A stretch of DNA of 64,000 nucleotides from a virus. Numbering within the stretch: position 1 is the stretch's first letter; each line of letters starts with the position of its first letter. Under the pieces are notes generated by a model. The model was not told where the DNA came from and ran no database searches. It saw nothing but the letters and a program-made list of their open reading frames with translations. This document shows positions 4,886 to 46,762 of the stretch, piece by piece. The position numbers and the translations under genes are program-made. The stretch is taken from UHGV virus genome UHGV-0096064, one strand, 5' to 3'.

Positions 4886-4929
4886 CCTCCCGGTCTTGCC
4901 TTCGTACCGGGAGGGTTTCTCTTTTTCCT
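4886..4929 (+). terminator. hairpin plus T-tract with plus-strand polarity, embedded in the minus-strand late operon
   Basis: CCCTCCCGGT-(11 nt loop)-ACCGGGAGGG followed by GTTTCTCTTTTTCC on the plus strand. Overlaps the stop-codon region of the giant gene. Coordinates +/-2. Confidence 0.4.
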
Positions 4930-10900: not shown

Positions 10901-12478
10901 CTGCATGTTCTCGAACATGGGCGTGAGGTCGGCGATGGACACGGGCGCTTCGGATGCGTCTATCCTGTCCATCTCCTCACTGACCCCGGCGAGGGCCGCA
11001 GTAATCTCACTCTCCCTCGCAGCCTGCTCAGGAGTGTACTTCTGGTTGACGACGCCGCCGGGCAATGCAGGGGCCTGAGAGGGCTCAGGAACGTTGAAGC
11101 CGCCGACCGTACCTTCCGGTTCGGGAGTGCGCGTTCCGCGTCCGGGAGGGGGCGTTGTGGGGCCGGAATCGGCATCCCCTCCACGCAGCCCACCGATGCC
11201 GCCGAGGAACCCGCCGACTGCGGCACCAGTGACGCCCGCTTCAAGCGCACCCTCGGTCAAGGGTCGGGCGTCACCAGTCGCCGCATTGTATGCGTAGTTC
11301 TGGGAGACCTGTTCCGCATACTCGGAAGGGAACTCCTCAGCCGCGCCGAGGGCGACGCCGGAACCGAGGCGGCGGATGATGCCGCCGCGAATGAGCGGGG
11401 CCAGCACACTGGAGCGGGCGATGAGGGCTTCCGGCCCAAGGACGCCGGATGCGGCACCGATGCCCGATGCGATGGGCAGGGCGGCGGCAGCGGCGTCGCG
11501 GGCCATCACAGCGCGGATGTCCGCGTCGCTCATGCCCTGTGCGGCGAGGGCCTGATACTGCGGCACACGGGACAACTTCTCCGTGGGCGCGTCAAAAATC
11601 TCCTGTGCGACCTGAGCGACCACACCTGTGGCAGACTGGACGGCACCAGCCGCAGCCGCGCCTGTAGCCGCGCCGACTGCGGAACCCACGGGGCCGCCCA
11701 CGGAACCGACAGCGGCACCGCCACCTGCGGCACCGATGCTGGTCAGGACATTGGGCCACTGCTCAAGCACGAGGTTCAGGAGAGGACGAAGGCTCCTGTC
11801 CTCATACATGCGGCGGAAGACGACCCAAGAGTCCGAGTCGGCGGCACGCAGCTCCTGTTCGCGGCGGTAGTCGTTAAGGCGCTGCGCATTCTCCGAACGG
11901 CGCTGCACCTCGTTGGCCGCGCTCTGGGAAAGCTCTCTGGCAAGCGCGTCGGCAGACTCGCGCAAGTCCGCGCCTTCGGTCTTGGACATGGCGTCGGCAA
12001 GCAACGGGATGGTGTACCCTTGGTCAATGGCCGTGTCCAACCCCTTCTGCATACTGGCGTAGAAGTTGGACATCATGGCAGGGAACCCGGTAGCTGCCGC
12101 TTCCTGTTCCTCGGCTTCCCGGCGCAAGGGCTGGAGGATGCCGTTCTTGAAACGGTTCGCCGCCGTGGTGTCCTGACCAAACCGCTGCTTGGCGTATTCG
12201 GGCCACACCTGATTCTCGTACTGGTCGAGAATCTCGTACTTCCTCTGGTACGACGCCTCCTGCCACCACGGTTGCCCACGGAGTTCATCAATGACCCGCC
12301 GGGTCTCCTCCATCATGTAGTTCTGCTCAAGTTTCTGAGCGAGCTTGGCCTCCTCTTTCTTGTTGAGTGAGGGGGCCTTGGGAGTGGCGGGGAGCGGCGC
12401 GTGCCTGTAACCCTGCAAGGGGTCGATGGGTTCGGTAAGGATGGAGCCGCTAGGAAGACCCATGTTGTTGCGTGCCAT
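4928..12478 (-). CDS. giant (2516 aa) multidomain virion-associated protein with a zincin-like HExxH motif, a Gly/Ala-rich hydrophobic segment and Pro/Thr-rich linkers
   Basis: Single uninterrupted ORF. Motif ILHEFEHYF (HExxH). Gly/Ala-rich stretch GAAGGGAAVGSVGGPVGSAVGAATGAAAAG. PT-rich linker PVTPLTPVNPTPAPVQTEP. Lies at the distal end of the structural operon, just downstream of a lytic-transglycosylase-domain protein. This placement is analogous to ejected internal or polyvalent proteins or a tape-measure-like protein. No single-subunit RNAP motifs were recognised. Confidence 0.8.
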   Translation of the reverse strand: MARNNMGLPSGSILTEPIDPLQGYRHAPLPATPKAPSLNKKEEAKLAQKLEQNYMMEETRRVIDELRGQPWWQEASYQRKYEILDQYENQVWPEYAKQRFGQDTTAANRFKNGILQPLRREAEEQEAAATGFPAMMSNFYASMQKGLDTAIDQGYTIPLLADAMSKTEGADLRESADALARELSQSAANEVQRRSENAQRLNDYRREQELRAADSDSWVVFRRMYEDRSLRPLLNLVLEQWPNVLTSIGAAGGGAAVGSVGGPVGSAVGAATGAAAAGAVQSATGVVAQVAQEIFDAPTEKLSRVPQYQALAAQGMSDADIRAVMARDAAAAALPIASGIGAASGVLGPEALIARSSVLAPLIRGGIIRRLGSGVALGAAEEFPSEYAEQVSQNYAYNAATGDARPLTEGALEAGVTGAAVGGFLGGIGGLRGGDADSGPTTPPPGRGTRTPEPEGTVGGFNVPEPSQAPALPGGVVNQKYTPEQAARESEITAALAGVSEEMDRIDASEAPVSIADLTPMFENMQRAEAAGLDIKRLEPVFVRLQGYLNRNPMVTVNAVNAYTDWKMNNTGRPVTPLTPVNPTPAPVQTEPRVEPTVEPTVEPVSTPVEPTISPVPEAPRPTVPVSSTADFNALVNRAREVMRDIASSQPPASWTSEYGLSFYDKTEELLSLLARAYQIAPDERMRASVQSVIDNVDANLSQLSGQDIKNRFEQWKKVEHDRLLRTNAGTATEAGAGGVAANRQTAAAQPADGAGVVAGSPQDVVGAGGTTQGAGAGGAAYANPGTVAGDVQPNQPMGPQAGDGADSGRSGRPDDTAGAGQAVGDGGYPSTTEQRSSDGRFTGVLGRLAESGDSVESTTSILEQFRRDRQQYYKSSGYSDAEALRQAEMDMATANTINAFLQDIRNSAESMDAFNDLQHLLDRFRKELKRDEQSANTAAVLVYRMLNTLAQVSQKTVRQMLDEITLLPTTRSENQRGSFVAERIYDPNYNLANRAVRVRPDADVNTILHEFEHYFIYEGVLVLSRMSQAEIQSNPMASQLLADLKTLARYAGVPEANFFNPPTWGSRAHESITTAFERYMMDGTVPKNSGLQPIFERVKEFILRWYVQVREVIDQYLRYSSFRQLKKDSVAYELRNDIYNAVLPVEVRDAFDRQLTGLNTPVNDIIDALRLDVDLQTRVALDVQFTNVMTSMMQAGYDPRAAYTFAADYMRDAVGMQTASPREQINLEQDNALDTSIDYAAQTMEMADAAPDSLYNNAINEAMVDPQNMTSPLATLGNTPTYVTQQLVSGLLTPQADTSVNGMQNGNMLDSTSDVVRGAETASEPPVIRTPEEIAAEKIELGDAINAELSEGMAPGDAGETANPDGTFDVNEYAPLGDVEEDGLARAAELVSTIARENAESLRKGKEMEAYRRKGFIETAYSPEWRAGRWASFATSIRRNFVDGGADFRLYCLKHLSNSRTNPDETPLLQSFNTLQNRITGAARLFMNNVYEPIMKWANENAYDIDGKSVDVDKFMSDMGRYRTAQHTLEAAPKQQIELERAVQEAYMLPNGQEKIDAVKAAKSALSAYLARQAGEDVDVNLYGGRTVAEAQAEIAEVVARYGQEKCNAGLAMLGNGYSWVTRFLFENGQLSDADFARFDEWLYYCAMTTDKQAGTGGINDISYYAPRQNFHRYGSRTPAQDAWTALVQYGTRASRSVGMSEFGSYLRQAYLMFEKQGNVTSEAGNTKFYNGMAMVPENIVNGIRYGTGQHTKQAEQWARNVEDSTDVVIRVLDVDESGQSVIQAYRVMFDDPKVHESVRNPFYAAAPDKVLSALATVTRSYASVYTRFKPYFPVLTSVRDFTERVSYLPTRNFTNERGENVPGARIACQMVGFALNPMNFIRLARYWSTGTSGNAYIDRMMQDFKASGVDSSSNYNELLRLNKRRTATDVRAVIPNSLKKLGSGTIGKAINTITEWGNFFYALPTFAQFIKMRENGINMRDTVSGVSTLMNMAQRGRFTSRYLSPLFPFTNSIGQTASNLLGALGLHTMTFGNHPQARQLRMKAIRGWAVLFASYASIRALIPLIQDSLGEGEEGERILDMMPLSQVCTFIPVGTGGGAYVKWPTGFGPAMLGALAAYGFDRVERGKMSCGDLMATMMVVFGKSLVPNSMPAFEFKQNPMQFIIQTMSPMIMQPAVQVATGYSYSGAKLSYDSYNRTARQSDHYNLTTDRTWVNIAKGLYDAIGVDMAPEEIRALANGYLGGVLQGVMAWIEHDPLYKNPIYQSTREQLGPFWSALGATSIYATGMNVTQTSFYNAREHYENLIRRAGIGNALKGTVGEKKDILLSAGFTQEEADDYISIYVADRQLSDLNSETRKTLDALFGPDMDEDAIRQVYTDWSIARNAVQENTVNGLNYFNRGYRGRFDVPDEDASAALRHEVPNAPVIPGNIDLYNRPVVKNADGTISTVATMTEQDGDGLWVNFPSIGPNGERWSPEQAWQHYLLTGEHLGKFRTLEAAEKAAIALHDDQADLYMN

Positions 12479-31759: not shown

Positions 31760-34700
31760 TTACTTGAACCGGATGAGGGCCGCAGCTGCAGTCTGGTTCG
31801 TGTTACCGGACACGCTAATCTTCACAGCCTTGCCAGCCAGCGCGGAGATGGCGGTGGCGCGGGTGCCAATCGTCACCGCAGAACCCGAAGAGAACTCAGG
31901 CTCAATGGAGAACGTCAGCGCATTGGCCCCGGCACCGTCCGCTTCCTTGGCGATAAGCTGCACCGTGGAGCGATCACCCGGAATGAAGGTGTGGATGATC
32001 GGAATCGTAGCACTGGACTCGAAGGTGTAGTACAGCGGCATGTCGGCATAATCAGCCGCATCCACAGCATTCGTGACCTGAGTCTTCAGCCAATCCGCAT
32101 TCACAGACACCCCGGCAGCTTCCACCTTGATACCGCCGTTGACCTTGGCATTCACCGCCACAGACTTGGTGCCCGTACCGGAGATGGTCACACCGTTCCC
32201 GGCGGCCACCTTATCGCCCGTGTCCACGTTTTCCGCCAACCATGTGGTGTTGACGGAGATACCGCGGGCGTCGACGGTGATACCACCATCGGCCTTAGCC
32301 TTGGCAGTGATGGTCTTCGTGGTCGTACCGGAAATGATCACACCGTTCCCGGCGGCTACCTTGTCGCCAGTATCCACGTTTTTAGCCAGCCAATCGACGC
32401 TGACCGAGATACCCGTGGAGTCGACCAGAATACCGCCGTCCGGCTTCGCCTTGGCAGCCACGGTCTTCGTCCCGGTTCCGGTCAGGGTGATGCCGTTGCC
32501 AGCCGTAACCTTGTCGCCGACCTTACCGGCCAGCCAAGATGCATCGACATAAACACCACTGGCATCGACCACGAGACCACTGGCAGCCTTCACCTTGACG
32601 GTAATCGTCTTAGTGTCAGTACCCTTAACGATCACACCGTTACCCGCAGCGACCTTGTCCCCGGCGGTAGTATGTTTGGCAAGCCATGCGGCATCAACAG
32701 AGACACCCGTTTCATCAACGACAATGCCGCCGTCAGTTTTGGCCTTGACTTGGAAAGTCGAAAGCGCCAGTTCAAGACCATCACCCGCTTCATAATCACG
32801 CACATGCTTCTTGAAGAAGCTATACGTGATAATAGCCTCATTAATGGGATTCTGAGGCGTCATCGGCGCGACACCGTAAGGTGAAGGTGTATCTCGCAAT
32901 TCCGTAAAAATAGGAAGCACAACACCGAGAGAAGCCACTTGGTCATCCGCAGCTCCCTGAACAATATTCATCAGGATAGTGTGGTCTGTGGGAGAGACAT
33001 TATGGCTAATGCTGGACAGCAACTTGCCGCCACCAACCCCGTAAGTCGTAACCAGATTGGCCCGGCCTGTTTCCTTAGTCAGAGCCGAACTCACCACAGC
33101 AATATGCTGAGTAATAGTCCCGTCCTGATTCAGCTTACCAGTAAAAGCCTTAAGGTCGGCAATGGTCTGATCACCGGAAGTACGGACAACCGTATCATCC
33201 ACGGCGATGCCAGCGGCAGCCACCTCGATACCGTCACCCGCCTTGGCGGAGATAGTATCGGAAGCAATGGCAATACCATTGCCAGCCTTGTAGTTGCTGG
33301 CCGCATGCTCAGACAGCCACTCGGTGTCCACGGAGATGCCGTCAGCGTCCACGATGATGCCGCCCTCAGCCTTGGCCTTGGCCGCAACCGTCTTGTTCGT
33401 CCCGTTCGCCGTGATGGACACGCCGTTACCAGCGACCACGGTGTCACCGCCAGCATGGTCTTTCAACCACTCCTCGTCGATGAACACGCCGTTCTCGTTG
33501 ACGATAAGGCCGCCATCAGCACCCGGCTTCACGGAAATGTTTTTGGTGGTATCTTGATCAACGATGGTAACACCGCTACCAGCGGAAACGATGTCACCCT
33601 TGTCATGCTGCGCCAGCCAGTCCGTATCAATGTGGAGGCCATAGCTGTCGACCAACAGGCCCGCATCCAGCTTGACCTTGGCGTTGATGGTGGTGGTGGT
33701 GTCAGTCTCGGCACTGAAACTGATACCGTCGCCCGGCTTGTACTCCATCACCTTGGGCAAATCGTCGGCAGACAGGTACGCACCCTTGTCAGAGCCTACG
33801 TTGATGAGGTTGCCCTCATCACTGGAGACCACGTTGACGGTGAACTTCCCTTCGGAGTCGAACGTCAGAGCGTTTTCCTCGTCTTTGGTGGACACCATCG
33901 TCGACATATCGACACTCAGCTCATCAGCTTCGGTGAAGCTCAGGTGTCCATCAGCGGCAGCCTTCACGGAAATCTTGAACCCGTTGAAGATGATACCGTT
34001 GCCAGCGACATAATCGCCGCCCAAGCAGTGTTCCTCAATCCACTTCTCGTCGATGTAAACGCCGGAATCGTCGATGAGGATACCGCCAGCATCCTTCGGC
34101 TTGACCGCGATGGACTTGGCATCCTCGCCCTCGGTCACGGTAATGCCGAGACCAGCGTCGACCTTGTCGCCAAGCTGAGGCGTGAGCCACTCGGTGTCCA
34201 CACCCACGCCATTCTCGCCGACAGTCAGGCCGCCTTCGGGGTCAACCTTAACGGAAACGGTCGCATCAGAACCGGACAGGGAGACGTTGATACCATCCCC
34301 GGCCACAGGTTTCGGCGCATGTTCGCCAAGCCACTCCTCATCCACATAAACGCCATCGGCATCGGTACGGATACCGCCGCCAGCTTTCGTCTTCGTGGCA
34401 ACGCCATCGGCGTCCTTGCGCAGACCCCCAAGGGGATTCAGCTTCACGGCCAGACCACCCTGAGAACCTTCGGAAGAGGCACCAGCGGCGAGGCACTCAA
34501 GGCCGGACGTGTTGTCGTTGGCGGCGGTCAAGTCCATCTTCACGGCGATAGTCTTGACGAACTCGTCATCCCCAGTAAGGGCGATACCACAACCCGCCTG
34601 AACCTTGTCGGAACGCTTGGCGAGCCAGTCCTCATCAATACTCAGACCATTGGCCGCGTTGCACAGGATACCACCGTCTTCATGGAGACGGACGATAATC

Positions 34701-36175
34701 TGCTTCCCGTCCATCTCGATGCCGCAACCGGAAGTGTACGGGTCAACCCGAAGCTGACCGGACTCGTCGACATACAGGTCGTTATCGTCGCCACCAGTAC
34801 CCACAATCTTGCTGGTGTCCACGGCGATGCCGCCGTCTTCACCGAGCTTGAGGGTGCCGTCCTCGCTCAGATGCACCATGATGGGAGACACCGACGCACC
34901 GGAAATGGTCTGAGCCGCACCGAACATGAGGCCGGACTTGGCGATGAGGGGCAGGTCGAGGTACCCATTGTGGCAGGCAAGGCCGTTGTAGGGCTTGCCC
35001 GTGGTGCCGTCGCCGCGCAGGAGCACGGAGATGACATCGTTGGCAACCTTGATGCCGCAGCCACCAGTGTAGTTGTCGATGAAATCATCCACGTTCACAT
35101 ACACATCGACCACGTTGCCGTTCGACAGGAGATAGACGAAGCGCATATACTTGCCGGGGATGATGCCGACGCCGGGGGTGAAAGTGGCGGAACCCGTCAG
35201 CTTCATGCCAGTCAGCGCCTTCCAGTTGATGGTCAGGAGAGACCCGTCAGCGAACCGGAAGGTGGTCGGCTGCGTGGAGACAACGGCGGACTCACGGTGG
35301 TCTTCGAGGAAGGAGGCGCGGGCCACTTCGGGCCACAGGCCGGAGTGCTCGGCATCAAGCTCATACTCGAAGTCGATGGTCTGTTCGACGTTCAGCTTCG
35401 TGTGGAACTTGAGGCCCATCCCGCCGTCGAAGTCGTAGTCGCCGTACTTCATCGCGATGGACAGCATGTAGTCGCCTACCGTGTCCTCTTCGCCGGAAGC
35501 GTCAGGTTTGCCGTCCACGATGTAAACGGCGCGCAGGGAAGAGGTCGAGGTCATGATGGTCACGGTATCAACCACGACCCCATCATGCCCGGTGATGTTG
35601 AGCTTGCCAGTGTTGGCATCGTACTCAACGCCGACCTCGGAAGAAATCTTCCCGTTGTTCCCCTCGTAGAGAATCTTGTCGTTGCGGTTGACCAGCGAGT
35701 CGAAGTCGGCGTAAGCGCCGCCGTCTTCACCGCGTTCGAGAAGGTTGCCGTCATCCTTGGAGATGACTTCGAGAACCTCGAACACGTCCTCACGGGTCAG
35801 CTTGATTTTGCCGTCCACCTCACTGATTGTCAGAAGGTTGATGACGGCGTTGGACAGGATGTCGTTCCCGTCAATCTTGACGCCGCCATCGGAACCGAAG
35901 CCGAGCATGTTGTCCGCGTCGGCGGAAATCTTCGGTTCGGCGGGCAGGGCGAACAGCTTGCCGTCCACACCGAGCTTGATGATGTTGTTGTCCGTCGCGC
36001 TGACGAAATCGTCAGCCTTCACGGACAGGCCGTCAGCAAGGTTCTTGAGCAGGTTCACGCCGTCCGTGGACACGGGGACGAAAACGGGACTGAGGAGGGA
36101 ACCCTCGGTCGCCGATACGTGTTTCTTCCCATCGACAGACAGCGTAACCGGAGTAAAAAAGATAGCCACAGGCAT
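31760..36175 (-). CDS. tail fibre or appendage protein (1471 aa) with many tandem ~42-aa beta-repeats
   Basis: Repeated units of the form DGGIxVDxxGVxVDxxWLaxhxxxGDKVAAGNGVxIxGTxTKTITxKAKA occur 8-10 times (e.g. GGIVVDETGVSVDAAWLAKH, GGILVDSTGISVSVDWLAKN, GGITVDARGISVNTTWLAEN). Lies upstream of the terminase genes. Confidence 0.75.
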   Translation of the reverse strand: MPVAIFFTPVTLSVDGKKHVSATEGSLLSPVFVPVSTDGVNLLKNLADGLSVKADDFVSATDNNIIKLGVDGKLFALPAEPKISADADNMLGFGSDGGVKIDGNDILSNAVINLLTISEVDGKIKLTREDVFEVLEVISKDDGNLLERGEDGGAYADFDSLVNRNDKILYEGNNGKISSEVGVEYDANTGKLNITGHDGVVVDTVTIMTSTSSLRAVYIVDGKPDASGEEDTVGDYMLSIAMKYGDYDFDGGMGLKFHTKLNVEQTIDFEYELDAEHSGLWPEVARASFLEDHRESAVVSTQPTTFRFADGSLLTINWKALTGMKLTGSATFTPGVGIIPGKYMRFVYLLSNGNVVDVYVNVDDFIDNYTGGCGIKVANDVISVLLRGDGTTGKPYNGLACHNGYLDLPLIAKSGLMFGAAQTISGASVSPIMVHLSEDGTLKLGEDGGIAVDTSKIVGTGGDDNDLYVDESGQLRVDPYTSGCGIEMDGKQIIVRLHEDGGILCNAANGLSIDEDWLAKRSDKVQAGCGIALTGDDEFVKTIAVKMDLTAANDNTSGLECLAAGASSEGSQGGLAVKLNPLGGLRKDADGVATKTKAGGGIRTDADGVYVDEEWLGEHAPKPVAGDGINVSLSGSDATVSVKVDPEGGLTVGENGVGVDTEWLTPQLGDKVDAGLGITVTEGEDAKSIAVKPKDAGGILIDDSGVYIDEKWIEEHCLGGDYVAGNGIIFNGFKISVKAAADGHLSFTEADELSVDMSTMVSTKDEENALTFDSEGKFTVNVVSSDEGNLINVGSDKGAYLSADDLPKVMEYKPGDGISFSAETDTTTTINAKVKLDAGLLVDSYGLHIDTDWLAQHDKGDIVSAGSGVTIVDQDTTKNISVKPGADGGLIVNENGVFIDEEWLKDHAGGDTVVAGNGVSITANGTNKTVAAKAKAEGGIIVDADGISVDTEWLSEHAASNYKAGNGIAIASDTISAKAGDGIEVAAAGIAVDDTVVRTSGDQTIADLKAFTGKLNQDGTITQHIAVVSSALTKETGRANLVTTYGVGGGKLLSSISHNVSPTDHTILMNIVQGAADDQVASLGVVLPIFTELRDTPSPYGVAPMTPQNPINEAIITYSFFKKHVRDYEAGDGLELALSTFQVKAKTDGGIVVDETGVSVDAAWLAKHTTAGDKVAAGNGVIVKGTDTKTITVKVKAASGLVVDASGVYVDASWLAGKVGDKVTAGNGITLTGTGTKTVAAKAKPDGGILVDSTGISVSVDWLAKNVDTGDKVAAGNGVIISGTTTKTITAKAKADGGITVDARGISVNTTWLAENVDTGDKVAAGNGVTISGTGTKSVAVNAKVNGGIKVEAAGVSVNADWLKTQVTNAVDAADYADMPLYYTFESSATIPIIHTFIPGDRSTVQLIAKEADGAGANALTFSIEPEFSSGSAVTIGTRATAISALAGKAVKISVSGNTNQTAAAALIRFK
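32140..32650. repeat. nucleotide-level tandem repeats (~126-bp unit, ~4 copies) inside the tail fibre gene
   Basis: Near-identical stretches recur at 126-nt spacing, e.g. gataccgttcccggcggcNaccttRtcgcc...gtccacgtttt...gccaRccaNNc. They correspond to the 42-aa protein repeat. Confidence 0.5.
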
Positions 36176-38367: not shown

Positions 38368-39474
38368 CTACCGCCAACTAGCTGGAATGTTTGAATAATT
38401 TGCCGCATTGGTACAATTCATGAAAGTGAAGTCATGGGTCGGCGTGTTCGGGTACTTCGACCACAAGGCCGGGACGCTCGACGTAATGGCGGCATCATAC
38501 GAGAACGAATGGGTGAAGTCCTCGACCGATTTGGTCGTATCGAACAACGATTCCGGCACCGTGATTAACCCTGTACAATTATTGAACACATAGGCGAAGT
38601 TGGTCACTTTGGTCGTGGTGCTGAACAGGCCAGACGGGACGACGATAATCTCAGGACACTCCATGAACGTGCCGTAAAAGCTGGTCGCCTCGGTGTTATT
38701 CTTGAAAAGCGTCGACGGGACTTGAACCAGATTGCTGCACCGGGCGAACGTCCCGGCGAAAAGCTGCGCCTTGGAGTTGTTGGCGAACAGATTCTGCGGC
38801 ACCTCACGCAACCCGTCGCAGCCGTCGAAGCAATAGGAAAAGTCCACGACATTGGGGTTCCCCGCGAACAGGTCAGCCGGAATGTCCGTCACCTTCACCA
38901 GCCCATGGAAGCAGTTCTGGAACCCGGTCGCCGCCTTGCAATTGGCAAACAAATTCTCCGGGATGGATGAAATCAGGGAACAGCCGTTGAAGCTGTTGGA
39001 GAACCCGGTACACTCCGTCCACAGGTCAAAGAGGCCCACCGGGATGGAGCGGAGATGCGAGCAGCCGTAGAAGTGGGAATAGGGGTCGGTCAGCACCGGG
39101 GGCAAGCTGTAGGTCTCGGCACCATCCGGCCCGATGTTGACAAGGGTCTCCCGAAAGAATTGGGTATGCGGGATAGCCGCCCGTTCAGGGTTGCTTCCCA
39201 CGAACTGGACTTGGCGCATGTCCTTTGCCCAGATGCGCATGGTGTAAACGCCGGACTGGTCATAGTCGTGGATGAGCTGGTCGGTATCGCTGCTTCCGGC
39301 CTTGACGGTCGTGACCTTGCCATCTCCCCACTCAATGAAGGTATCAATCAGGAATACCCCCCTCTCGTCTTCCAGATAACCGAGCGGCGCGCTCGTCCGC
39401 TTTCCCCCGGATGTGGTGGCCCCGGTGTCCACGACGAACACCATCGGCATCATATTGTCTCTGTATCCATACAT
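38368..39474 (-). CDS. BspA-type leucine-rich-repeat protein, paralog 3 (368 aa from the MYGYRDN start)
   Basis: C-terminal ~23-aa repeats F.GC..L..IP..LF.NN....F...F..C. N-terminal domain (TGATTSG..., WGDGKVTTV) and C-terminal ending YSNIPASWR are shared with the other two paralogs. The ORF track extends to 39567, but the homologous start MYGY lies at 39474 with an AGGA RBS. Confidence 0.75.
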   Translation of the reverse strand: MYGYRDNMMPMVFVVDTGATTSGGKRTSAPLGYLEDERGVFLIDTFIEWGDGKVTTVKAGSSDTDQLIHDYDQSGVYTMRIWAKDMRQVQFVGSNPERAAIPHTQFFRETLVNIGPDGAETYSLPPVLTDPYSHFYGCSHLRSIPVGLFDLWTECTGFSNSFNGCSLISSIPENLFANCKAATGFQNCFHGLVKVTDIPADLFAGNPNVVDFSYCFDGCDGLREVPQNLFANNSKAQLFAGTFARCSNLVQVPSTLFKNNTEATSFYGTFMECPEIIVVPSGLFSTTTKVTNFAYVFNNCTGLITVPESLFDTTKSVEDFTHSFSYDAAITSSVPALWSKYPNTPTHDFTFMNCTNAANYSNIPASWR

Positions 39475-39488
39475 AACGGCATATCCTA

Positions 39489-39504
39489 TGTGTGTGTGTG
39501 TGTG
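39489..39504. repeat. (TG)8 / (CA)8 dinucleotide microsatellite immediately upstream of the RBS of the LRR paralog 38368..39474
   Basis: tgtgtgtgtgtgtgtg read directly from the sequence. On the coding strand of the LRR gene it reads gggatg(CA)8 TAGGATatgccgttATG. Confidence 0.85.
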
Positions 39505-39584
39505 CATCCCTTGACGAATCTGCCTGGCAGTGCATACTACCCCCAAAGAACACCCATTGTCCAACACCCAATACAGGAGCCAAT

Positions 39585-40172
39585 ATGGACAGACTCATTT
39601 GCGGCTACCCGGTCGTGCCCAAGGCGAAAACGCTCATGGTGTACTCCGACCCCGACTATACCAGCCCCTACCCCGGATATGCTCTGGAAGAAGTCATGAA
39701 CTTCCGTGCGGACGACAAGCCCTATGTCGGCCCCGTCGAGTTTGAATACGACGACAGCATCACTGGCCCCGCGTCCGTGACGACCGACAGCAAAGGGAAA
39801 GCCACCGTCACCCTCACGCCGAACAGAGATGGCCTCTCCATCATCACATGCAAATTCGGGGGGGGAGAGTACGAACTCAGGTACAGTGTGCTAAACCATC
39901 AGGTGAGGTTCGGCGTCAGAACCATCTACCAGAACCGGAACACCTCCACAACGCTCTGGGTCAACAATAACTTGCAGGAATACAACGGGACGGTCTCCAT
40001 CAAGTACCCGGCAGGGCTTACCGGGCCGACCAGCGGTAAGATAAGCGCCGGGGCGATGGCAATCACCATCAACGGCTCCACGCTCGGACGCAAACAGGTC
40101 GACGTCCAGTTCGGCGTGCAGACCGCCTACTGCGCCGTGGAAGTCATTAAAGACCCGATGCCTCCTCAGTAA
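39585..40172 (+). CDS. hypothetical secreted or Ig-like beta-sandwich protein (cargo gene on the opposite strand)
   Basis: 195 aa from the ATG with a CAGGAG RBS (the ORF-track start at 39492 is upstream of this). Followed by its own intrinsic terminator. Opposite orientation to the flanking LRR genes. Confidence 0.5.
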   Translation: MDRLICGYPVVPKAKTLMVYSDPDYTSPYPGYALEEVMNFRADDKPYVGPVEFEYDDSITGPASVTTDSKGKATVTLTPNRDGLSIITCKFGGGEYELRYSVLNHQVRFGVRTIYQNRNTSTTLWVNNNLQEYNGTVSIKYPAGLTGPTSGKISAGAMAITINGSTLGRKQVDVQFGVQTAYCAVEVIKDPMPPQ

Positions 40173-40180
40173 CCCGTACA

Positions 40181-40213
40181 CCCCCTGTCATTCCGGCAGG
40201 GGGTTTCGTTTTG
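40181..40213 (+). terminator. rho-independent terminator after 39585..40172
   Basis: CCCCCTG-tcattccgg-CAGGGGG followed by TTTCGTTTTG, 9 nt after the stop codon. Confidence 0.55.
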
Positions 40214-40281
40214 AACAGGATTGACTATCCATTACCCCCCTTAAAATCCTTTGATAAACCCTATCATCAAAGGATGGAACC

Positions 40282-40914
40282 ATGTACGGATATTTGGAAA
40301 ACAAGGGCAGGGTCATGGGAAAACTCGCCTTCTCCTGCTCTTGGAACTTCGTCGGCGACCTCGCCAACAACCCCCGGTACAACGCGCTAGTGACGACGCC
40401 GAACCTCCTCTTCCTCTCGACGTCCTATGAAGAGCCGGGAGCGGATGACGGGATGGAGTTCACCTCAAACGGCCTTGTCTGCACCGAGGGGTCGATTGCC
40501 ACGAAGACGCAAACGGATTCAAGCTGGACAATCTCAGGACTTACGGGGTCACAAATCAACATGGGCGCGGGTTCGGCCAATGCCTTCAACATCATCAACT
40601 ACCTGACCGCATGGGTCTGGAGTCCGAAGAAGGAACAGTGGTATTCTCTGGGCACACTCCCCTCGTATGCACCGGGGTCTCCGACTTCCGTCAACACCGA
40701 CCAGCACCTGTCGATGGATAGGCAAGGCGAGGTGAGCTACCTCGAAGCCAAGGAACCCTCTGACGACCACCGCATCATCCGGTGGGAAGACTTCGACTTC
40801 CACTTCCAGATGACGGCGGTCTATACGGACAAGTACGAGAGCTGCAACTTCAAGGAACCCATCGTGAACGTGCGCTTCGGCGCGCCCTACGAGTTCGACC
40901 CCGACTACTTCTAG
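40282..40914 (+). CDS. hypothetical protein whose N-terminus MYGYLENKG echoes the LRR paralog starts
   Basis: 210-aa plus-strand ORF between minus-strand LRR genes. Begins MYGY, as do the three LRR proteins (MYGYRDN, MYAYLNHKD, MYGYRDNEPRES). Confidence 0.5.
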   Translation: MYGYLENKGRVMGKLAFSCSWNFVGDLANNPRYNALVTTPNLLFLSTSYEEPGADDGMEFTSNGLVCTEGSIATKTQTDSSWTISGLTGSQINMGAGSANAFNIINYLTAWVWSPKKEQWYSLGTLPSYAPGSPTSVNTDQHLSMDRQGEVSYLEAKEPSDDHRIIRWEDFDFHFQMTAVYTDKYESCNFKEPIVNVRFGAPYEFDPDYF

Positions 40915-41020
40915 AAAAGGCCGGAATGGGGCCTAGGATGGCGATAACGGGTCAAGATAGCGTTGGATAAGGGATGAGGGATTGCGAGGCTCTGGAGGGC
41001 GTTTCTGCCCCGGAAAAGGT

Positions 41021-41053
41021 GAACCCCTCTCAAGTTGCAGTTGAGAGGGGTTC
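41021..41053. terminator. perfect 13-bp hairpin between the converging plus-strand cargo genes and the minus-strand small genes
   Basis: GAACCCCTCTCAA-gttgcag-TTGAGAGGGGTTC. Confidence 0.45.
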
Positions 41054-41158
41054 GGAGGACTGGTCATGTCCATACGTTGGAGTACGTATACGGCAGGAGA
41101 CCGAAATCAGGATGTTTCCTTAATTACCCCGCCAGTATACCCCGGACGGGGCTTGAAG

Positions 41159-41293
41159 TCAACAGCCGCCCCATCGCTCCATCGCGTAGATGAGGATGCA
41201 GGCTATCACCCATCCCCAGAAGATGCCGCTGCACGCGGCCCAGAACGGGACGCACAGGAAGACGAACGTGAGGAACAAGATGTAAGCCATACT
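41159..41293 (-). CDS. possible 44-aa hydrophobic peptide (below the ORF-track cutoff)
   Basis: Hand translation: MAYILFLTFVFLCVPFWAACSGIFWGWVIACILIYAMERWGGC. Two predicted transmembrane segments. Tandem with 41292..41483. Confidence 0.3.
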   Translation of the reverse strand, partial: SMAYILFLTFVFLCVPFWAACSGIFWGWVIACILIYAMERWGGC

Positions 41294-41483
41294 AAAGAGT
41301 TCTCGTGGCCCAAAGGATGAAGGCGATGCAGGCCAAAAGGCTCACCAGCACGGCGCAGGCAATCGCGAAATCATCCGAGGGCACGGCCTCCCGGTTCTGG
41401 CAGGGGCACTGGACGACGATGGTTTGGCACACAGGCTGGCACTGGACAGGCATCGGATACTGAACGGACGGAGAAGCATTCAT
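41292..41483 (-). CDS. possible small Cys-rich membrane protein
   Basis: 63 aa. Cys-rich N-terminus (CQPVCQTIVVQCPCQ) and C-terminal transmembrane helix ACAVLVSLLACIAFILWA. Downstream of the disrupted LRR gene. Confidence 0.35.
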   Translation of the reverse strand: MNASPSVQYPMPVQCQPVCQTIVVQCPCQNREAVPSDDFAIACAVLVSLLACIAFILWATRTL

Positions 41484-41523
41484 ATCGAGGACTCCTTTGG
41501 GTTAAATGGTTCGAGAACGGATG

Positions 41524-43135
41524 TTACTTCCAATCGTCGGGAATGTCAACGTAGTTGGAAGCACTGGTCACGTTGCGGAAACACCTGCCATGGTCGGCGA
41601 CATCAGGGTATGTCGTCCATAGCGTGGGTACGGCGCTTGTTACCTGTGAGCAACCGAGGAATGTACTTACAAAACTTTCCACTTTGCTCTTATTGTCAAA
41701 CAACCCGGACGGGATGCTCTTTAGAACCTGCCAATTCGCGAACGTATTCTGGAAAGATGTGACATCCGGCTGGTTCCTGAACAGTCCGGCGGGAATCTCC
41801 ACACCAGCCCACCACTCGGAAAAGGCGTTATAGAAGTTGGTCGCCTTGATATTGTTGGCAAATATGTCTTCCGGTATATGCGTCATCTTGGACAAACCGG
41901 CAAACACGCTGCCGAAGTTAGTAACCTTGGTGTTCTTAGCGAAAAGGTTCGCAGGGATTTCTCCCACGATACTCTGACATCCGCTGAACGTGGCGAAGAA
42001 CACCGTGGCATCCGGCTAGTTGTCGAACAGTCCTTCGGGTATCCCCGTTATCAGGCTGCAATCGGAGAACACATAGGAGAAATCGGTAATCTTGGGATTG
42101 TTGGCGAACAATTCCGCCGGGATAGTACCCGTCACCTTGTAGCAGCTTTCAAACAGATACTCGACATCCACGAGTTCCGTCATGGCGCTCAGGAGATTGC
42201 CCGGAATGGAACCCGTGAGGTTCCTGCAATTGTCGAACAGATGGGCCACGGTGGTGACTTTCGTATGCTTGGAGAACATGGAGGGCATGGGATTGGCCCA
42301 ACTCGAACAATTTTGGAAGGTCGATGCAAACGAAGTCACTTCGAGATTGGTGTCGAATAATGTCGTGGGCACCGAAACCAGCGAGGTGCAACCATAGAAC
42401 GTGTTGGTGAAGTCGACGACTCTGGTGTTCTTGGCGAAAAGTCTGGACGGGATGGTGGTGATGCCGCACGTTGAGAATGTACCGTAAAAAAGTCGTGACG
42501 TCCGGGCAATTATCAAAGAGGTTGTTGGGAATGGCCTTGATGCCGAGGCATCCATAAAAACAATCGGAAAAACTGTTGACCTTGACGGTCTTGTCGAAGA
42601 GACCGGATGGGATTTCCGTCAAACCGGAACAGGTGTGGAACGTGGAGTTGAAGGTCTCGGTGTTCGGATTGCCGTCGAAAATCCCGGCGGGGATGGCCTT
42701 CAATTTGGAGCAGCCGTAGAACGCGCCCTTGAACGCGGTCGGGACAAGTTCCGGAAAGCTGTATCCGGTAGGGTCTTTCGGCACGATGCCGACAAGCGTG
42801 TCCTGCCACAAGTCCATGTTCTTTATGGCGTTCGTAAACGAGCACTTGCCGAGGTCGTCCGCCGTCACTCCTATGACGTACTCGCCCGGCGTCGCGTAAG
42901 TATGCGTGGCGTACTCGTCGAAATAGGCATCACTATACTCGATGCCCTTGGGGATGGTCGTAATGGTGCCGTCGCCCCAATCCACTTGTACGGCAGTCTG
43001 CGTTTTATAACCAGACATCATATTCTCGAACGCATGGATGGAGCTCATGGCTTTCGTATTGCCCGATGTCGTAGCCTCGGTATTCACGACACAATAGACG
43101 TATTCCCTATCCTTATGATTCAAATAAGCATACAT
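41524..43135 (-). pseudogene. BspA-type LRR paralog 2, disrupted by a +1 frameshift in a T6 run (~42484) and an in-frame TAG (~42013)
   Basis: Three consecutive ORF-track pieces (42149..43159, 42016..42555 and 41524..42003) together make one LRR protein homologous to its neighbours. The frame changes at gtcacgacTTTTTTacgg (VTTF|LRY versus the expected VTTFYGTFSTCG). Then LFDN-TAG-PDATV(M)FFATFSGC. Confidence 0.7.
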
Positions 43136-43157
43136 AATGATACTCTCCTTATTTTCC

Positions 43158-43167
43158 ATATATATAT
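43158..43167. repeat. (AT)5 tract in the upstream region of LRR paralog 2
   Basis: On the coding strand: cgctcTTTGACTgaatccccATATATATATggaaaatAAGGAGagtatcattATG(MYAY...). A TTGACT -35-like hexamer lies 9 nt upstream of the tract. Confidence 0.6.
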
Positions 43168-43211
43168 GGGGATTCAGTCAAAGAGCGACGCCATGTGAGG
43201 TCAGGAGGGGA

Positions 43212-44927
43212 CTACTTCCAGTCGTCAGGAATGTCGGCGTAGTTGGTCAACTTGCTGCAATTTCTGAAACATTTAGTTCCATTGGCGTCAGGATGAGTGA
43301 CCCACAAGTCGGGAGCTGTTCCAACCAGCTTGTAACAATTCTCGAATATCTGGTGGAAATCCTTGATATTCGGATTGTTCACGAAGAGGTTCGTTGGCAG
43401 CGTCGTCAAATTGGTGCATCCATTAAACATCATCTCCACGTCATCCAGAGCAGGATTGTTGTCAAACAACCCTTCCGGGATGGCACCCTCCAACGTGTTC
43501 AAACTATAGAAAGCGTAAGCCAAATTCTTTAACTTGGGGTTGTTGGCGAACAGCTTGGCGGGAATGGAGCCGTTGAAATCACAACCGTAGAACACGCTGT
43601 CGAGATACGTTAGCTCCGGGCAATTGGCAAAAAGATTCTCAGGAATGGGGCCGTTCAAATTGCATACCCTGAACAAACCGGAAAAAATCTCGGCAAGCGG
43701 GTTATGAGCGAACAACCCTTCCGGAATGGGGCCCACCAAACCATCACAACCATAGAAACAGCCGGAGAAGTTCGTCACTTCGGGGCAATTGGCAAAAAGG
43801 TTTTCAGGGATAGTTCCTGTGAGTCCCTCGCAGAACCGGAAGGTATCCGAAAACGTCTGCACCTTCGTGCAATTGGCAAAGAAGTTCTCAGGAATGGCAC
43901 CAGTGAGCTTCTCACATTCATAGAACGTCGCCTCGAAAGAAATAACTTCGGGGCAATTGGCGAACAAACCCGCAGGCAGGGAACCCGTCAGGCCCTTGCA
44001 ACCGTAGAATGCAGAGACAAAGGTACCCGCCTTCCGGTTATTGGCGAAAAGATTCTCAGGAATGGAGCCAGTGATATTTTCGTCAAAATAGAACAATCGG
44101 TCAAAAGTGTAAGCTATGGTGTTGTGGGCAAAAAGGTTTTCAGGGATAGGCCCTGTCAATCCAGGGCAGTGGCTGAATACATAGGCGAACGATGTCACAT
44201 TGGGATTGTTGGCGAAGAGATTCTCAGGAATTTCAGTCAGTCCCTCACAACCATTGAACACGCTGTCAAACTTGTAAACTTTTGGACAATTGGCAAAAAG
44301 GTTTTCAGGGATAGACGTGATATTTTCACAGCTATAGAATGTGGAAGCAAACGACTCGACCTTGGTGTTCTTGGTGAAAAGGTCTTCGGGAAGCGCACCC
44401 GTAAGTCCAAGACAATAATAGAACGTATTTTCAAAAGTGGTGGCGTCTACGTTTTTGTAGAATATGCCTTTAGGAACCTGCGTCAACTTCTTGCAACTAT
44501 AAAAGGCATAAGCAAGTCCGTCATGCCGGAAAACAGGCAGCGAATAGGACTCGGCACCCTTGGGGCCAATCCCGATAAGAGTTCTTCTATAGACATTCCA
44601 TTCACTCTGGTTGATGTCATAACCATGCAACTTGCAGACGCTGAAATCATCAGCGTAAACAGTCACAGTATATTCGCCGGGGGTGGCATAGTCATGCGTG
44701 GAATATTTATCCCAATACTGTGAATAAAACTCCGTACCCTTGGGAATTTCGGAAATTGAACCATCACCCCAATCAATAGTAATTGCCGTCAGGGATTGCT
44801 CATCAAGACCAAAGCTATTGAATGAATATACTGGAACCACAAACTCGGTATCACCCTCGTTGGTGGCCTCGGTATTTATAAGAAAGATAAGGCTTTCACG
44901 CGGCTCATTGTCACGATAACCATACAT
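43212..44927 (-). CDS. BspA-type leucine-rich-repeat protein, paralog 1 (571 aa from the MYGYRDN start)
   Basis: Long array of ~23-aa repeats (FxxCxxLTGxIPENLFANNxxxxxFxxxF). The N-terminal domain and the C-terminal YADIPDDWK are shared with the paralogs. The ORF track extends 78 codons further upstream (to 45161) through the promoter-like sequence. The homologous start with an AAAGGAG RBS is at 44927. Confidence 0.75.
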   Translation of the reverse strand: MYGYRDNEPRESLIFLINTEATNEGDTEFVVPVYSFNSFGLDEQSLTAITIDWGDGSISEIPKGTEFYSQYWDKYSTHDYATPGEYTVTVYADDFSVCKLHGYDINQSEWNVYRRTLIGIGPKGAESYSLPVFRHDGLAYAFYSCKKLTQVPKGIFYKNVDATTFENTFYYCLGLTGALPEDLFTKNTKVESFASTFYSCENITSIPENLFANCPKVYKFDSVFNGCEGLTEIPENLFANNPNVTSFAYVFSHCPGLTGPIPENLFAHNTIAYTFDRLFYFDENITGSIPENLFANNRKAGTFVSAFYGCKGLTGSLPAGLFANCPEVISFEATFYECEKLTGAIPENFFANCTKVQTFSDTFRFCEGLTGTIPENLFANCPEVTNFSGCFYGCDGLVGPIPEGLFAHNPLAEIFSGLFRVCNLNGPIPENLFANCPELTYLDSVFYGCDFNGSIPAKLFANNPKLKNLAYAFYSLNTLEGAIPEGLFDNNPALDDVEMMFNGCTNLTTLPTNLFVNNPNIKDFHQIFENCYKLVGTAPDLWVTHPDANGTKCFRNCSKLTNYADIPDDWK

Positions 44928-44957
44928 ATTGGTTCTCCTTTTTGTCCTTTCTATACA

Positions 44958-44967
44958 AGAGAGAGAG
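44958..44967. repeat. (AG)5 / (CT)5 tract in the spacer between -35-like and -10-like hexamers of the LRR paralog 1 promoter
   Basis: Coding strand: ccagtccTTGCCAgCTCTCTCTCTtgTATAGAaaggacaaaAAGGAGaaccaatATG. The spacer between TTGCCA and TATAGA is only 13 nt. Gaining two CT units would give 17 nt. Confidence 0.6.
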
Positions 44968-45257
44968 CTGGCAAGGACTGGAGCGGGACAGGGTGTGGGC
45001 CGGGAACTGGACTGGAAATTTCTCCGAAAAAATTTTGGAGGGGGTGAATGCTGTGGATTCAGACGGGGGTCAACGAAGCCCCCACCCCCCCTCGGACTGG
45101 ACTCATCTACGAACTCGGCGTCGACGGTGTCGCGCAATGTAGGTTGGCACAGGAATTGCATAGGAAAAGTTGCTCGAAGTCGCGAGCGTTCCTATATATG
45201 GAGTGGCCGGGGCGCGCCAAGTCCTTCGTCCAAATCCCCCGCCGGGCCGTCCCTACC

Positions 45258-45285: not shown

Positions 45286-45427
45286 TCCCGCCCGCCTCAC
45301 TCCATCACCTTGATGAAGCGGCCTGACGCGCCGCCTGCTCCACGTTCGCGGCTCATCCCTACCTTATATATACCCTGACCTTTTCGCCGCAAGCTGACGC
45401 GCTTCCCGTCCTGCTATGTCATCAGCT

Positions 45428-45459
45428 CCATCCAGTCCCGCCAGTCCCGCCAGTCCTAC
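45428..45459. repeat. 3x direct repeat CCAGTCC(C/T)(G/A)
   Basis: tccagtcccgccagtcccgccagtcctaccag. The core TCCAGTYC also recurs upstream of several early genes. Confidence 0.5.
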
Positions 45460-45469
45460 CAGACAACCA

Positions 45470-45780
45470 AGTGCACAATGTAATATCAACAAACCTATAT
45501 TACATTGTTACCTACACTGTAGTATTACACTGTTACAGGTGTTATATTGTAGCATTACACTGTAACGCGCAATGTACTTTTACAATGTAACACCTGTTAC
45601 AATGTAATGTTATTGTAAATTACATTGCACACTTGCTTACATTGTTATGGCATTGTTTTTTACATTGTTGCAGGTGTTACATTGTTTTTTACAATGTAAG
45701 TTACACTGTAAGTGTAATTACATTGCATGTAACATTGCGTCGCGCAATGTAAATTTTTACAATGTAATTACACACAGCGC
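45470..45780. repeat. dense array (>20 copies in ~300 bp) of a palindromic motif TTACA(A/T)TGTAA; iteron or operator array and candidate replication origin or master control region
   Basis: Read directly from the sequence: ...ttacattgttacc tacactgtagtattacactgttacagg...ttacactgtaacgcgcaatgtacttttacaatgtaacacctgttacaatgtaatgttattgtaaattacattgc...tttttacattgttgcaggtgttacattgttttttacaatgtaagttacactgtaagtgtaattacattgcatgtaacattgcgtcgcgcaatgtaaatttttacaatgtaattaca. GC content drops from ~60% to ~35% here. Confidence 0.7.
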
Positions 45781-45788
45781 GGGTTCCT

Positions 45789-45806
45789 TATTGATAATGG
45801 ATTATC
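45789..45806. promoter_or_regulatory. perfect 8-2-8 palindrome TTGATAATggATTATCAA (operator-like)
   Basis: Read directly from the sequence. Sits between the two iteron-rich blocks. Confidence 0.45.
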
Positions 45807-45899
45807 AACTTGCAACTTTTGCAAAAAACGAGATTCCGTAAGTTGTTGAATTTGTTGACCCGGAAAAATTTTCGCAAACCCCAAAAAGTGGTGAAAAAA

Positions 45900-46460
45900 T
45901 TACACAGGGAGAAAGTTACATTGTAAAAACGGGGACGAACGGGAGGACAGGAAGAGTAGAAAAATCAAGGGTTTATATATATTATTTTTTAAAAAAGAAT
46001 AAAATATATATATGTACTATGTAACTTTTTACCCCCTTACAATGTAACGGCCTATCCTAGTCGGCAAAAATGCAAAATGCTTTTTTCCAAATCGCCGAAC
46101 TTGATTGTGAAAATTTTCACCACTCAGGCGGCCTCGATTTACATAAGCTGCTATGTAACTTTTTGCGGAACCCCCCAAAAAAAACTTGCAAATTTGCATA
46201 CCCCCTTGAAAATCAGCGTAACACTTCAACGATTTCAACAACTTGCAACCAATTTTAAAATGCAAGTGAATTTTTTCACACTTGCAACTAGTTGGAATAT
46301 ATTAGGATACATCTTGCAAGTCAATTTGCAACCCCATTTTTACATTGTAAAAAGTAAAATCGTGTTACTCGTTTACATTGCGCAACACCGTCGACGCCGC
46401 CTTACACTGCATAACGCAATGTAAAAACAATGCAACAATCCTCACTATGTAATTACATTG
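45900..46460. repeat. second, sparser block of TTACATTGTAA-family motifs plus five ACTTGCAA(C) repeats, flanking a ~60-bp A/T stretch
   Basis: gttacattgtaaaaacg, ccttacaatgtaacgg, tttttacattgtaaaaag, gtttacattgcgcaa, cttacactgcataacgcaatgtaaaaacaatgcaacaat, and aacttgcaaatttgcatacc, caacttgcaacc, cacacttgcaact, catcttgcaagtcaatttgcaacc. Confidence 0.6.
45961..46020. promoter_or_regulatory. ~60-bp nearly pure A/T stretch; candidate DNA-unwinding element of the origin
   Basis: aaaatcaagggtttatatatattattttttaaaaaagaataaaatatatatatgtactat, in a ~60% GC genome. Flanked by the iteron-like motifs. Confidence 0.4.
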
Positions 46461-46648
46461 TTCTGCCCCTTGTCCAGTTCTGAGCGCGACACACGCGACG
46501 CCGTCCCCAAGTCCTGAGCTCCGCCCTGTCGCCTCTGCCTTCCGAATCCGGTTTCACTATCCCCAATAATCCAGTTCACCTTAACATCTTGATATTCCTA
46601 CTCAATCCAGTTCAACAAAAATAATTCCGAAAATTTTCGCTACAACTC

Positions 46649-46677
46649 TTGACAACATTTCAGTAACTCCTTATCTT
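46649..46677 (+). promoter_or_regulatory. sigma70-like promoter for the rightward (early) arm
   Basis: TTGACA-17 nt-TATCTT, ~90 nt upstream of the first early gene. Position +/-2. Confidence 0.45.
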
Positions 46678-46762
46678 GGCATCAACAACGGCGAACAACG
46701 CCGCCGGTTGCTACCGTAGCAACCCGATAACTTCACCTAATCCTATTCAAAGGAGTTCCCCA

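Follow-up and report, generated by a model that had tools for sequence, protein, structure and literature searches.

Length-variable simple sequence repeats beside three leucine-rich repeat genes of an uncultured human-gut phage: a candidate contingency locus

The virus sequence UHGV-0096064 (64,000 nucleotides (nt); hereafter the window, in which all positions are given) was analysed for simple sequence repeats (SSRs) beside three paralogous genes for leucine-rich repeat (LRR) proteins. The window, of about 64 kb, is the essentially complete genome of an uncultured human-gut phage. All three LRR genes lie on the minus strand. Paralog 1 (P1, 43212..44927) encodes 571 amino acids (aa) and is intact in the window, paralog 2 (P2, 41524..43135) is a pseudogene there, and paralog 3 (P3, 38368..39474) is in frame and encodes 368 aa. 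Each is preceded by a different dinucleotide tract, named here as read on the minus strand. For P1 (ATG at 44927) this is a (CT)5 tract (44958-44967; (AG)5 on the plus strand), 31-40 nt upstream of the start codon. For P2 (ATG at 43135) it is an (AT)5 tract (43158-43167), 23-32 nt upstream of the start codon and 8 nt (gaatcccc) downstream of the hexamer TTGACT (43181-43176). For P3 (ATG at 39474) it is a (CA)8 tract (39489-39504; (TG)8 on the plus strand), which is 15-30 nt upstream of the start codon and abuts TAGGAT (39488-39483). The placement of the three tracts had been given exactly in a preliminary description of the sequence, and all of them fall within 15-40 nt of a start codon.

Dinucleotide tracts of at least five units were found four times in the window, compared to 0.61 ± 0.66 expected from first-order Markov simulations, and three of the four are those upstream of the LRR genes. 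One tract in the window reached at least eight units, a length that did not occur in the simulations. When four tracts were placed at random, with placement confined to the 3.67 kb of non-coding DNA within 31.8-55.5 kb, all three 60-nt LRR upstream regions were struck with p ~1e-4. Nearby intergenic regions of 305 and 388 nt held no such tracts. The placement of the tracts is non-random and, since CT, AT and CA differ, the tracts were not inherited along with a duplicated promoter. These observations bear on the main rival explanation, by which the tracts are neutral slippage hot spots, unstable but with no regulatory role, drifting in dispensable and decaying accessory DNA. We regard this as a serious possibility, though one that falls short of even. 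It is opposed by the presence of tracts upstream of all three paralogs even when only non-coding DNA is considered, by the independent origins of three different motifs, by a (CA)8-10 length never reached in the simulations, and by the nearby intergenic regions that have no tracts.

Length variation was assessed in nine related lineages, 95-99.98% identical to the window, which were collected from public assemblies through exact-protein look-ups of small neighbouring genes, one protein match (P0014) and one IMG/VR scan. Tract alleles were read from the assembled consensus sequences. The preliminary description had proposed that metagenomic data be searched for heterogeneity in tract length, and across the nine lineages it was present at all three tracts. 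The (CT)n tract upstream of P1 has five units in the window, in the SAMEA5814426 group and in SRR32963743, and four (SRR5788526), six (SAMN06164583), seven (IMG 3300045988) or nine units (ERR9710631) elsewhere. The (CA)n tract upstream of P3 has eight units in the window and in SRR32963743, and three (IMG), five (three lineages), six (ERR9710631) or ten units (ERR13276073) in the others, so that both tracts show five alleles across 7-8 lineages. Upstream of P2, the (AT)5 of the window is replaced by (AT)4A, T(AT)3 or T(AT)5 in relatives, a range of 3-5 units.

This variation was compared with the surrounding sequence (individual assemblies are referred to by L numbers where they have to be told apart). 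Two contigs from a second sample, L095 and L096, had zero substitutions relative to the window over 3.8 and 2.8 kb, their sole differences being a change from (CA)8 to (CA)5 and from G5 to G6, 36 nt apart. L108 carried 185 substitutions yet only one indel, at the (CA) tract. L091 (ERZ28640557 / SAMEA5814426) differed from the window by three substitutions in 14 kb, one of them a nonsense mutation in P1 (GAG to TAG at 43616), and by only two indels, both upstream of P3. The samples of L091 and of the window both carry TwinsUK-style study labels, and evolution within a family or within a person may be involved. The (CA)5 allele was found in lineages 99.98%, 99% and 95% identical to the window, which points to recurrent change. 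A survey of 32.3-45.7 kb covered 57 simple tracts, counting homopolymers from 5 nt and dinucleotides from three units upwards, and 47 of them never varied in length. Its top ranks were shared by (CA)n, (CT)n and a poly-G tract inside P3, tied at five alleles each, and two promoter-spacer homopolymers were also multi-allelic. Because the L095/L096, L108 and 57-tract comparisons each set the tracts against their background, we hold it very probable that the tracts are hypermutable relative to their surroundings. As read from these assemblies, tract polymorphism among close genomes stands well above background, as is characteristic of SSR phase variation.

The possibility that the length differences are assembly or sequencing artefacts was considered, as homopolymer lengths such as G9 versus G10 in P3 depend on single assemblies, one of them (L110) at ~3x coverage. 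Artefact is, however, highly improbable, because independent assemblies (ENA, JGI, Logan) of apparently the same samples gave the same alleles, and because a G8 run (39858-39865) within an open reading frame (ORF) for an Ig-like protein next to P3 had the same length in all 13 assemblies covering the position. The tracts, at 8-20 nt, are also far below read length. Since this coding run is constant while shorter runs nearby vary, purifying selection on the Ig-like gene is suggested.

Upstream of P1, the (CT)n tract lies in a putative promoter on the minus strand (44950..44974), composed of TTGCCA (44974-44969), G(CT)5TG and TATAGA (44955-44950), and followed in the sequence by a Shine-Dalgarno (SD) motif, GGAGAA (44938-44933). 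The spacer between the hexamers is 2n+3 nt long, and measures 11, 13, 15, 17 or 21 nt in the alleles found. The preliminary description had placed (CT)5 in a 13-nt spacer between good hexamers, and had pointed out that two extra CT units would give 17 nt. The geometry proved correct and the predicted (CT)7 allele is present in L005 (~94-95% identical to the window). The quality of the -10 element did not hold up, as TATAGA is without the conserved last T, and the hexamers went unreported by the consensus promoter scan because of the spacer length and this missing T. The hexamers were nevertheless invariant in seven contigs, including L005 and the more diverged L109. The block CCAGTCCTTGCCAG(CT)nTGTATAGAAAGGAC...GGAGAACCAATATG was conserved in the same number of contigs except for one A5/A4 change, while the sequence just upstream diverges. 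That hexamers and ribosome-binding site are kept across diverged strains while the adjoining sequence changes argues against neutral hot spots.

A further alternative is that the tracts act after transcription, as parts of 5' leaders affecting translation initiation or mRNA stability, and not through promoter spacing. The (CT)n tract could serve as the loop of a GTCCTT/AAGGAC hairpin upstream of the P1 SD, and it does form the loop of a conserved 6-bp stem in what would be a hypothetical long P1 leader. The predicted unpaired probability of the P1 SD was nearly flat, moving from 0.23 to 0.20 for n = 3-11, which leaves a purely RNA-level role of (CT)n unsupported, and an Rfam search at the tracts gave no family match. 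The candidate role of (CT)n as an anti-SD element was rejected on the same values. For (CA)n, the alternative is favoured by the place of the tract, downstream of the best predicted P3 promoter and in direct contact with the SD, before which it could act as an unstructured spacer or enhancer. Overall, we consider post-transcriptional tuning unlikely.

The P3 promoter predicted by the scan is TGGACA-N18-TAGTAT on the minus strand (39534..39563). At the 3' end of its spacer is a G5 run (39540-39544), overlooked in the preliminary description, which is G4, G5 or G6 in relatives, so that the spacer measures 17, 18 or 19 nt. Three variants of the -35 element occur (TGGACA, TTGACG and TGAACA), each with five of six matches. 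The preliminary description was right that the (CA)8 tract abuts TAGGAT and the ribosome-binding site. Its assignment of the tract to a promoter spacer was not borne out, the tract belonging to the predicted leader, downstream of the better TGGACA-18-TAGTAT promoter. On the plus strand, the (TG)8 lies 6 nt upstream of the -35 element of another promoter predicted by the scan, TTGACG-N16-CATACT (39511..39538, plus strand), which precedes the Ig-like gene (39585..40172, plus strand). This gene is divergent from P3 and encodes 195 aa, with sub-threshold Pfam matches to Big_1 and Big_3_5 and a terminator at 40180-40204. The -10 elements of the two divergent promoters (TAGTAT on the minus strand, CATACT on the plus strand) overlap almost completely (39533-39539). 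Competition between the two for RNA polymerase is therefore possible, and its balance would shift with the variable G/C run.

A similar arrangement precedes a 210-aa gene on the plus strand (40282-40914), with a promoter-like sequence TTGACT-N15-TAAAAT (40221..40247, plus strand) whose spacer holds a C6 run (40235-40240), likewise missing from the preliminary description. In L109 and L110 this run is C7, and in L107 it is CCCTC9, so that the spacers there measure 16 and 22 nt. L005 and L108 lack the gene, and in L127 a 1-nt deletion at 40549 puts it out of frame. The 210-aa gene cassette (40211-40925), with its own promoter and flanking terminators, is moron-like. The Ig-like gene is likewise a promoter-gene-terminator unit, on the strand opposite to the late genes.

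Upstream of P2, the arrangement TTGACT-gaatcccc-(AT)5 is present in the window as first described. Its -35 element is not conserved, TTGACT being absent in L109, L110 and L127. In these three assemblies the sequence upstream of the (AT) tract is unrelated to that of the window and homology begins at the tract, and in L005 homology stops at the tract's downstream edge. The (AT) tract coincides with a cassette junction, and the promoter reading for P2 is weak. These junctions raise the possibility that the tracts are recombination linkers, which mark or promote the exchange of LRR cassettes between paralogs and strains, any length change being a scar. The homology edges on either side of the (AT) tract agree with this explanation, and so does the mosaic structure of the LRR genes. 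In L127 (SRR5788526) and L099 (ERR9710631), the first 57 codons of P1 are kept and are then followed by a different paralog, also present in L005, and in L094 (SRR32963743) a deletion fuses P1 (43456) to P2 (41716) in a 545-aa hybrid. Against it, both flanks of (CT)n and (CA)n are homologous in every strain, tract length changed in L095, L096 and L108 with no recombination or substitution nearby, and the known P1 mosaic junctions are inside the ORF, away from the tract. We consider recombination linkers very improbable.

Unstable tracts were also found inside the LRR genes. The P3 intragenic G tract (39357..39364, minus strand), not noticed in the preliminary description, covers codons 37-40. 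In the window an A interrupts it (G-A-G6) and the reading frame is kept. In-frame alleles were G5, G8 (three lineages) and G-A-G6, with a protein of 367-368 aa, while G7, G9 and G10 shift the frame and lead to stops at aa 41-43. P3 was out of frame in three lineages (four assemblies: L109, L110, L111 and L127), and in-frame and out-of-frame alleles thus coexist among the lineages. L109 and L110, the latter a low-coverage contig, were identical over 5,279 nt except for G9 versus G10 in this tract.

The earlier identification of three LRR paralogs stood as regards LRR identity, which is backed by phrog_9915, Pfam and a structural model, but not as regards P2 as an intact gene. In the window P2 is broken twice, by a T6 run (42486-42491) that shifts the frame by +1 and by a TAG codon in frame (42016-42018). 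The corresponding sites read T5 and CAG in relatives and L127 has an intact P2 of 536 aa, for which reasons the lesions are read as inactivation rather than recoding. Reassignment of TAG as the source of the in-frame stop was ruled out, as relatives carry CAG and ORFs of 1471 and 2516 aa are read with the standard code. In L109 and L110, P2 has an independent +1 frameshift at a second T run (42568-42572). Judged from these alleles, the P3 poly-G and the P2 T runs have the classical signatures of intragenic contingency tracts, with both in-frame and out-of-frame forms found.

On this evidence the LRR region (~38.3-45.0 kb) may be read as a hypermutable locus of contingency type with slippage-driven expression states, and we put the chances of this reading at about even. 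Slipped-strand mispairing would add or remove tract units much faster than base substitution acts. Promoter spacing would be altered by (CT)n for P1, by the G-run for P3 and by the C-run for the 210-aa gene. The (CA)n tract would alter the length of the mRNA leader just upstream of the P3 ribosome-binding site, and the poly-G in P3 and the T5/T6 runs in P2 would alter the reading frame. Phage populations would then carry heritable and reversible mixtures of expression states of accessory PKD-plus-LRR proteins. From the comparisons we infer that the hexamers would be real promoters, that repeat number would alter expression, that switching would be frequent within populations and that it would bring an adaptive benefit. 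That repeat number has a real effect on expression is, taken by itself, a question on which we are evenly divided. A more far-reaching proposal is a multi-gene 'phasome', in which three alternative LRR ligand-binding proteins and two small accessory genes on the opposite strand would each be gated by their own slippage-prone tract, be it in a promoter spacer, a leader or an ORF, so that every burst would be a combinatorial mixture of virions or expression states, hedging bets over host range or adhesion. Its promoter-located dinucleotide repeats would be a type of switch for which the papers searched gave no description in phages. This we regard as speculative and rather doubtful.

Several points weigh against a contingency locus, and many of them favour neutral hot spots. 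All three LRR genes gather ordinary inactivating mutations, which fit decay as well as switching. The frameshift and nonsense mutation that leave P2 dead in the window, the P1 nonsense mutation in L091, the P1/P2 deletion fusion in L094, the frameshifted P3 of four assemblies and the loss or frameshift of the 210-aa gene in some strains can all be counted on the side of decay. Unrelated non-coding homopolymers vary as well (A, T and C runs at 44939, 45027 and 40199). At P1, the 17-nt spacer was found in just one of seven lineages, and the other alleles (11, 13, 15 and 21 nt) would make poor sigma-70 promoters. The commonest allele is 13 nt, so that most strains would be 'off' despite an intact ORF. 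TATAGA, besides its missing final (-7) T, has no extended -10. The P2 TTGACT is confined to the window lineage and L005, and the position of (CA)n in the predicted leader, directly before the SD, is not that of a spacer tract. The (CT)5 and (AT)5 tracts are short for high-rate slippage, and in Haemophilus influenzae most 5-unit dinucleotide tracts are invariant in length (PMC2651432). Distant relatives (L007-L010), whose N-domain is 45% identical, carry just a terminator hairpin and no tract upstream of the LRR gene, which makes the tracts a feature of this species-level lineage alone. One person or sample may account for more than one of the lineages compared, and the coverage of L110 is low.

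The LRR proteins were characterised by family and structure searches. P1 and P3 matched phrog_9915 (E 7.7e-91 and 2.1e-41), a PHROG of unknown function. Pfam matches to LRR_5 and PKD were weak, that of P1 to LRR_5 (26.6 bits) lying just below the cut-off of 27.7. At E <= 1e-20, 1326 homologues of P1 were found, many with PF03382 or PF13306. P1 has a PKD-like N-terminal beta-sandwich followed by BspA-type LRRs. The AlphaFold model of P3 (mean predicted local distance difference test score, pLDDT, 89.6) has the same order of an N-terminal beta-sandwich and then an LRR solenoid, and residues 141-368 have block-mean pLDDT values of 89-99, mostly 96-99. Foldseek neighbours of the model include the LRR proteins TpLRR (6mlx) and 4h09. 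Others are unannotated phage 'PKD domain' and 'BspA-family' proteins, among them a 'PKD domain-containing protein' of an uncultured phage at a template modelling (TM) score of 0.73. Structural searches including BFVD, where the matches are unannotated, bore out the LRR solenoid and the PKD-like N-domain and gave no functional lead for the LRR proteins. On the family match and the modelled solenoid fold, P1-P3 are BspA-type LRR proteins (Pfam LRR_5 / DUF285). Such PKD-plus-LRR accessory proteins probably bind a ligand or cell surface.

The functional hint for the LRR proteins comes from a phage-P2-like Klebsiella phage, ST16-OXA48phi5.4, in which the same LRR type forms the C-terminus of a 1008-aa 'tail protein' encoded after the baseplate genes. 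The two share the repeat type and a C-terminal ...IPxxWK motif, with 31-34% tblastn identity over the LRR region. In contrast to ST16-OXA48phi5.4, the LRR genes here are small, stand alone with no tail protein attached, and have the early region on one side and the lysis cassette on the other. Because this likeness is the sole functional hint, a role of the LRR proteins as structural or host-range proteins is plausible.

A more obvious receptor-binding candidate of the phage is a 1471-aa fibre-like gene (31760-36175, minus strand) with weak matches to BppL_N and adenovirus fibre. It contains a (TGG)4 trinucleotide repeat (33688-33699), to which one unit is added, in frame, in L127. The 2516-aa ORF (4928-12478, minus strand) has LPD38 (large polyvalent protein) as its sole domain match, and may encode an internal or ejected virion protein. 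The window also encodes a large terminase, a portal-like protein, a holin (PF05105), an endolysin, a family-A DNA polymerase, a DUF927 primase/helicase and an SNF2 helicase, and a search for tRNAs in it found none. Genes run on the minus strand from ~45.0 kb down to 4.9 kb, and the early genes are on the plus strand beyond a 1.4-kb non-coding region (45.3-46.8 kb). Within this region (45327-46762), 12 copies of the palindrome TTACANTGTAA with at most one mismatch were found at 45500-46350, compared to 0.56 expected in the whole window. Many TTACANTGTAA copies form longer inverted repeats, and the array stands between the late and the early genes, with strong sigma-70-like promoters around it. 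It resembles an array of operators or iterons, which would make it a regulator-binding region or an origin. The TTACANTGTAA motif was searched for in the LRR promoters and was absent from them.

The window sequence was present at 99.995-100% identity in human-stool assemblies (ENA ERZ28661800/SAMEA3449165, Logan ERR911970 and JGI 3300029552). A megablast of 38.0-46.5 kb against GenBank phages gave no match and the large terminase subunit (TerL) is only ~30% identical to podovirus terminases, so that no cultured relative or host can be named. Of two endolysin genome scans for the host, the first gave no match and the second returned scattered unrelated taxa. The host probably uses classical promoters and SD initiation, because sigma-70-like sites are enriched in the region (20 in the promoter scan compared to 9.5 ± 3.4 expected) and a GGAG, GAGG or AGGA motif precedes 24 of the 31 called genes. 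Other searches for relatives were less productive than the small-gene look-ups. The full-length P1 protein recovered only distant LRR proteins, except for the match P0014, which led to a complete relative. The N-terminal-domain protein search for close relatives gave no match, a metagenome scan with the N-domain alignment gave only distant proteins among the matches listed, and scanning IMG/VR for the patterns of both promoters yielded no contig beyond the one already known.

The recognition of contingency loci in phages is recent, and those recognised to date are homopolymers within ORFs. If the contingency reading is true, the present locus would add switches of promoter spacing and leader length, with dinucleotide repeats as the unstable element, and an uncultured human-gut phage would have a whole paralogous family of candidate ligand-binding proteins controlled in this way. 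Natural populations, and not laboratory lysates, supplied the evidence. If the LRR proteins bind host or mucosal ligands, gut phages could diversify adsorption or adhesion with no change of protein sequence.

In bacteria, SSRs in promoter spacers include the poly-G/C tracts of the Neisseria porA, opc and fetA promoters and the poly-A tracts of the Mycoplasma vlp promoters. The arrangements at P1, at the P3 G-run and at the 210-aa gene resemble this transcriptional class in sequence geometry alone, each tract being located between -35-like and -10-like hexamers. The (CA)n tract, in a leader, and the (AT)n tract, whose -35 is not conserved, differ from it. The divergent, overlapping promoters of P3 and the Ig-like gene are similar to those of hifA/hifB in H. 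influenzae, where (TA)9-11 sets the spacing and controls fimbriae (van Ham 1993, as cited in PMC2651432). As in bacterial SSR loci, the targets are paralogs of surface-adhesin type, and alleles differ between close strains. The genome here is, unlike those, a phage genome, the tracts are shorter (4-10 units), and the promoters are predicted ones, TATAGA being a poor -10.

Among phages, the Campylobacter Fletchervirus group has poly-G tracts in its genes for receptor-binding proteins (Sorensen 2021, as cited in PMC12633550), and contingency loci formed by homopolymers are on record for T2, T4 and further phages (Gomez, Barrick and Waters 2025, PMC12633550). The latter preprint deals with intragenic homopolymers and makes no mention of promoters or dinucleotide repeats, and no relevant paper came from a full-text literature search on SSRs in the promoter spacers of phage genomes. 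The earlier statement that such tracts are essentially undescribed for phage structural or host-range genes is therefore only partly true, as switching by intragenic homopolymers is published, and the preprint is silent on promoter and dinucleotide tracts. The present locus shares with the Fletchervirus, T2 and T4 loci an ORF homopolymer with in-frame and out-of-frame alleles (P3 G5-G10 and P2 T5/T6), a candidate ligand-binding gene and the logic of bet-hedging. It differs from the published phage loci in that the evidence here is comparative only, in that the tracts varying most are dinucleotide repeats located within 5' regulatory DNA, and in that several kinds of tract are clustered in one paralogous family.

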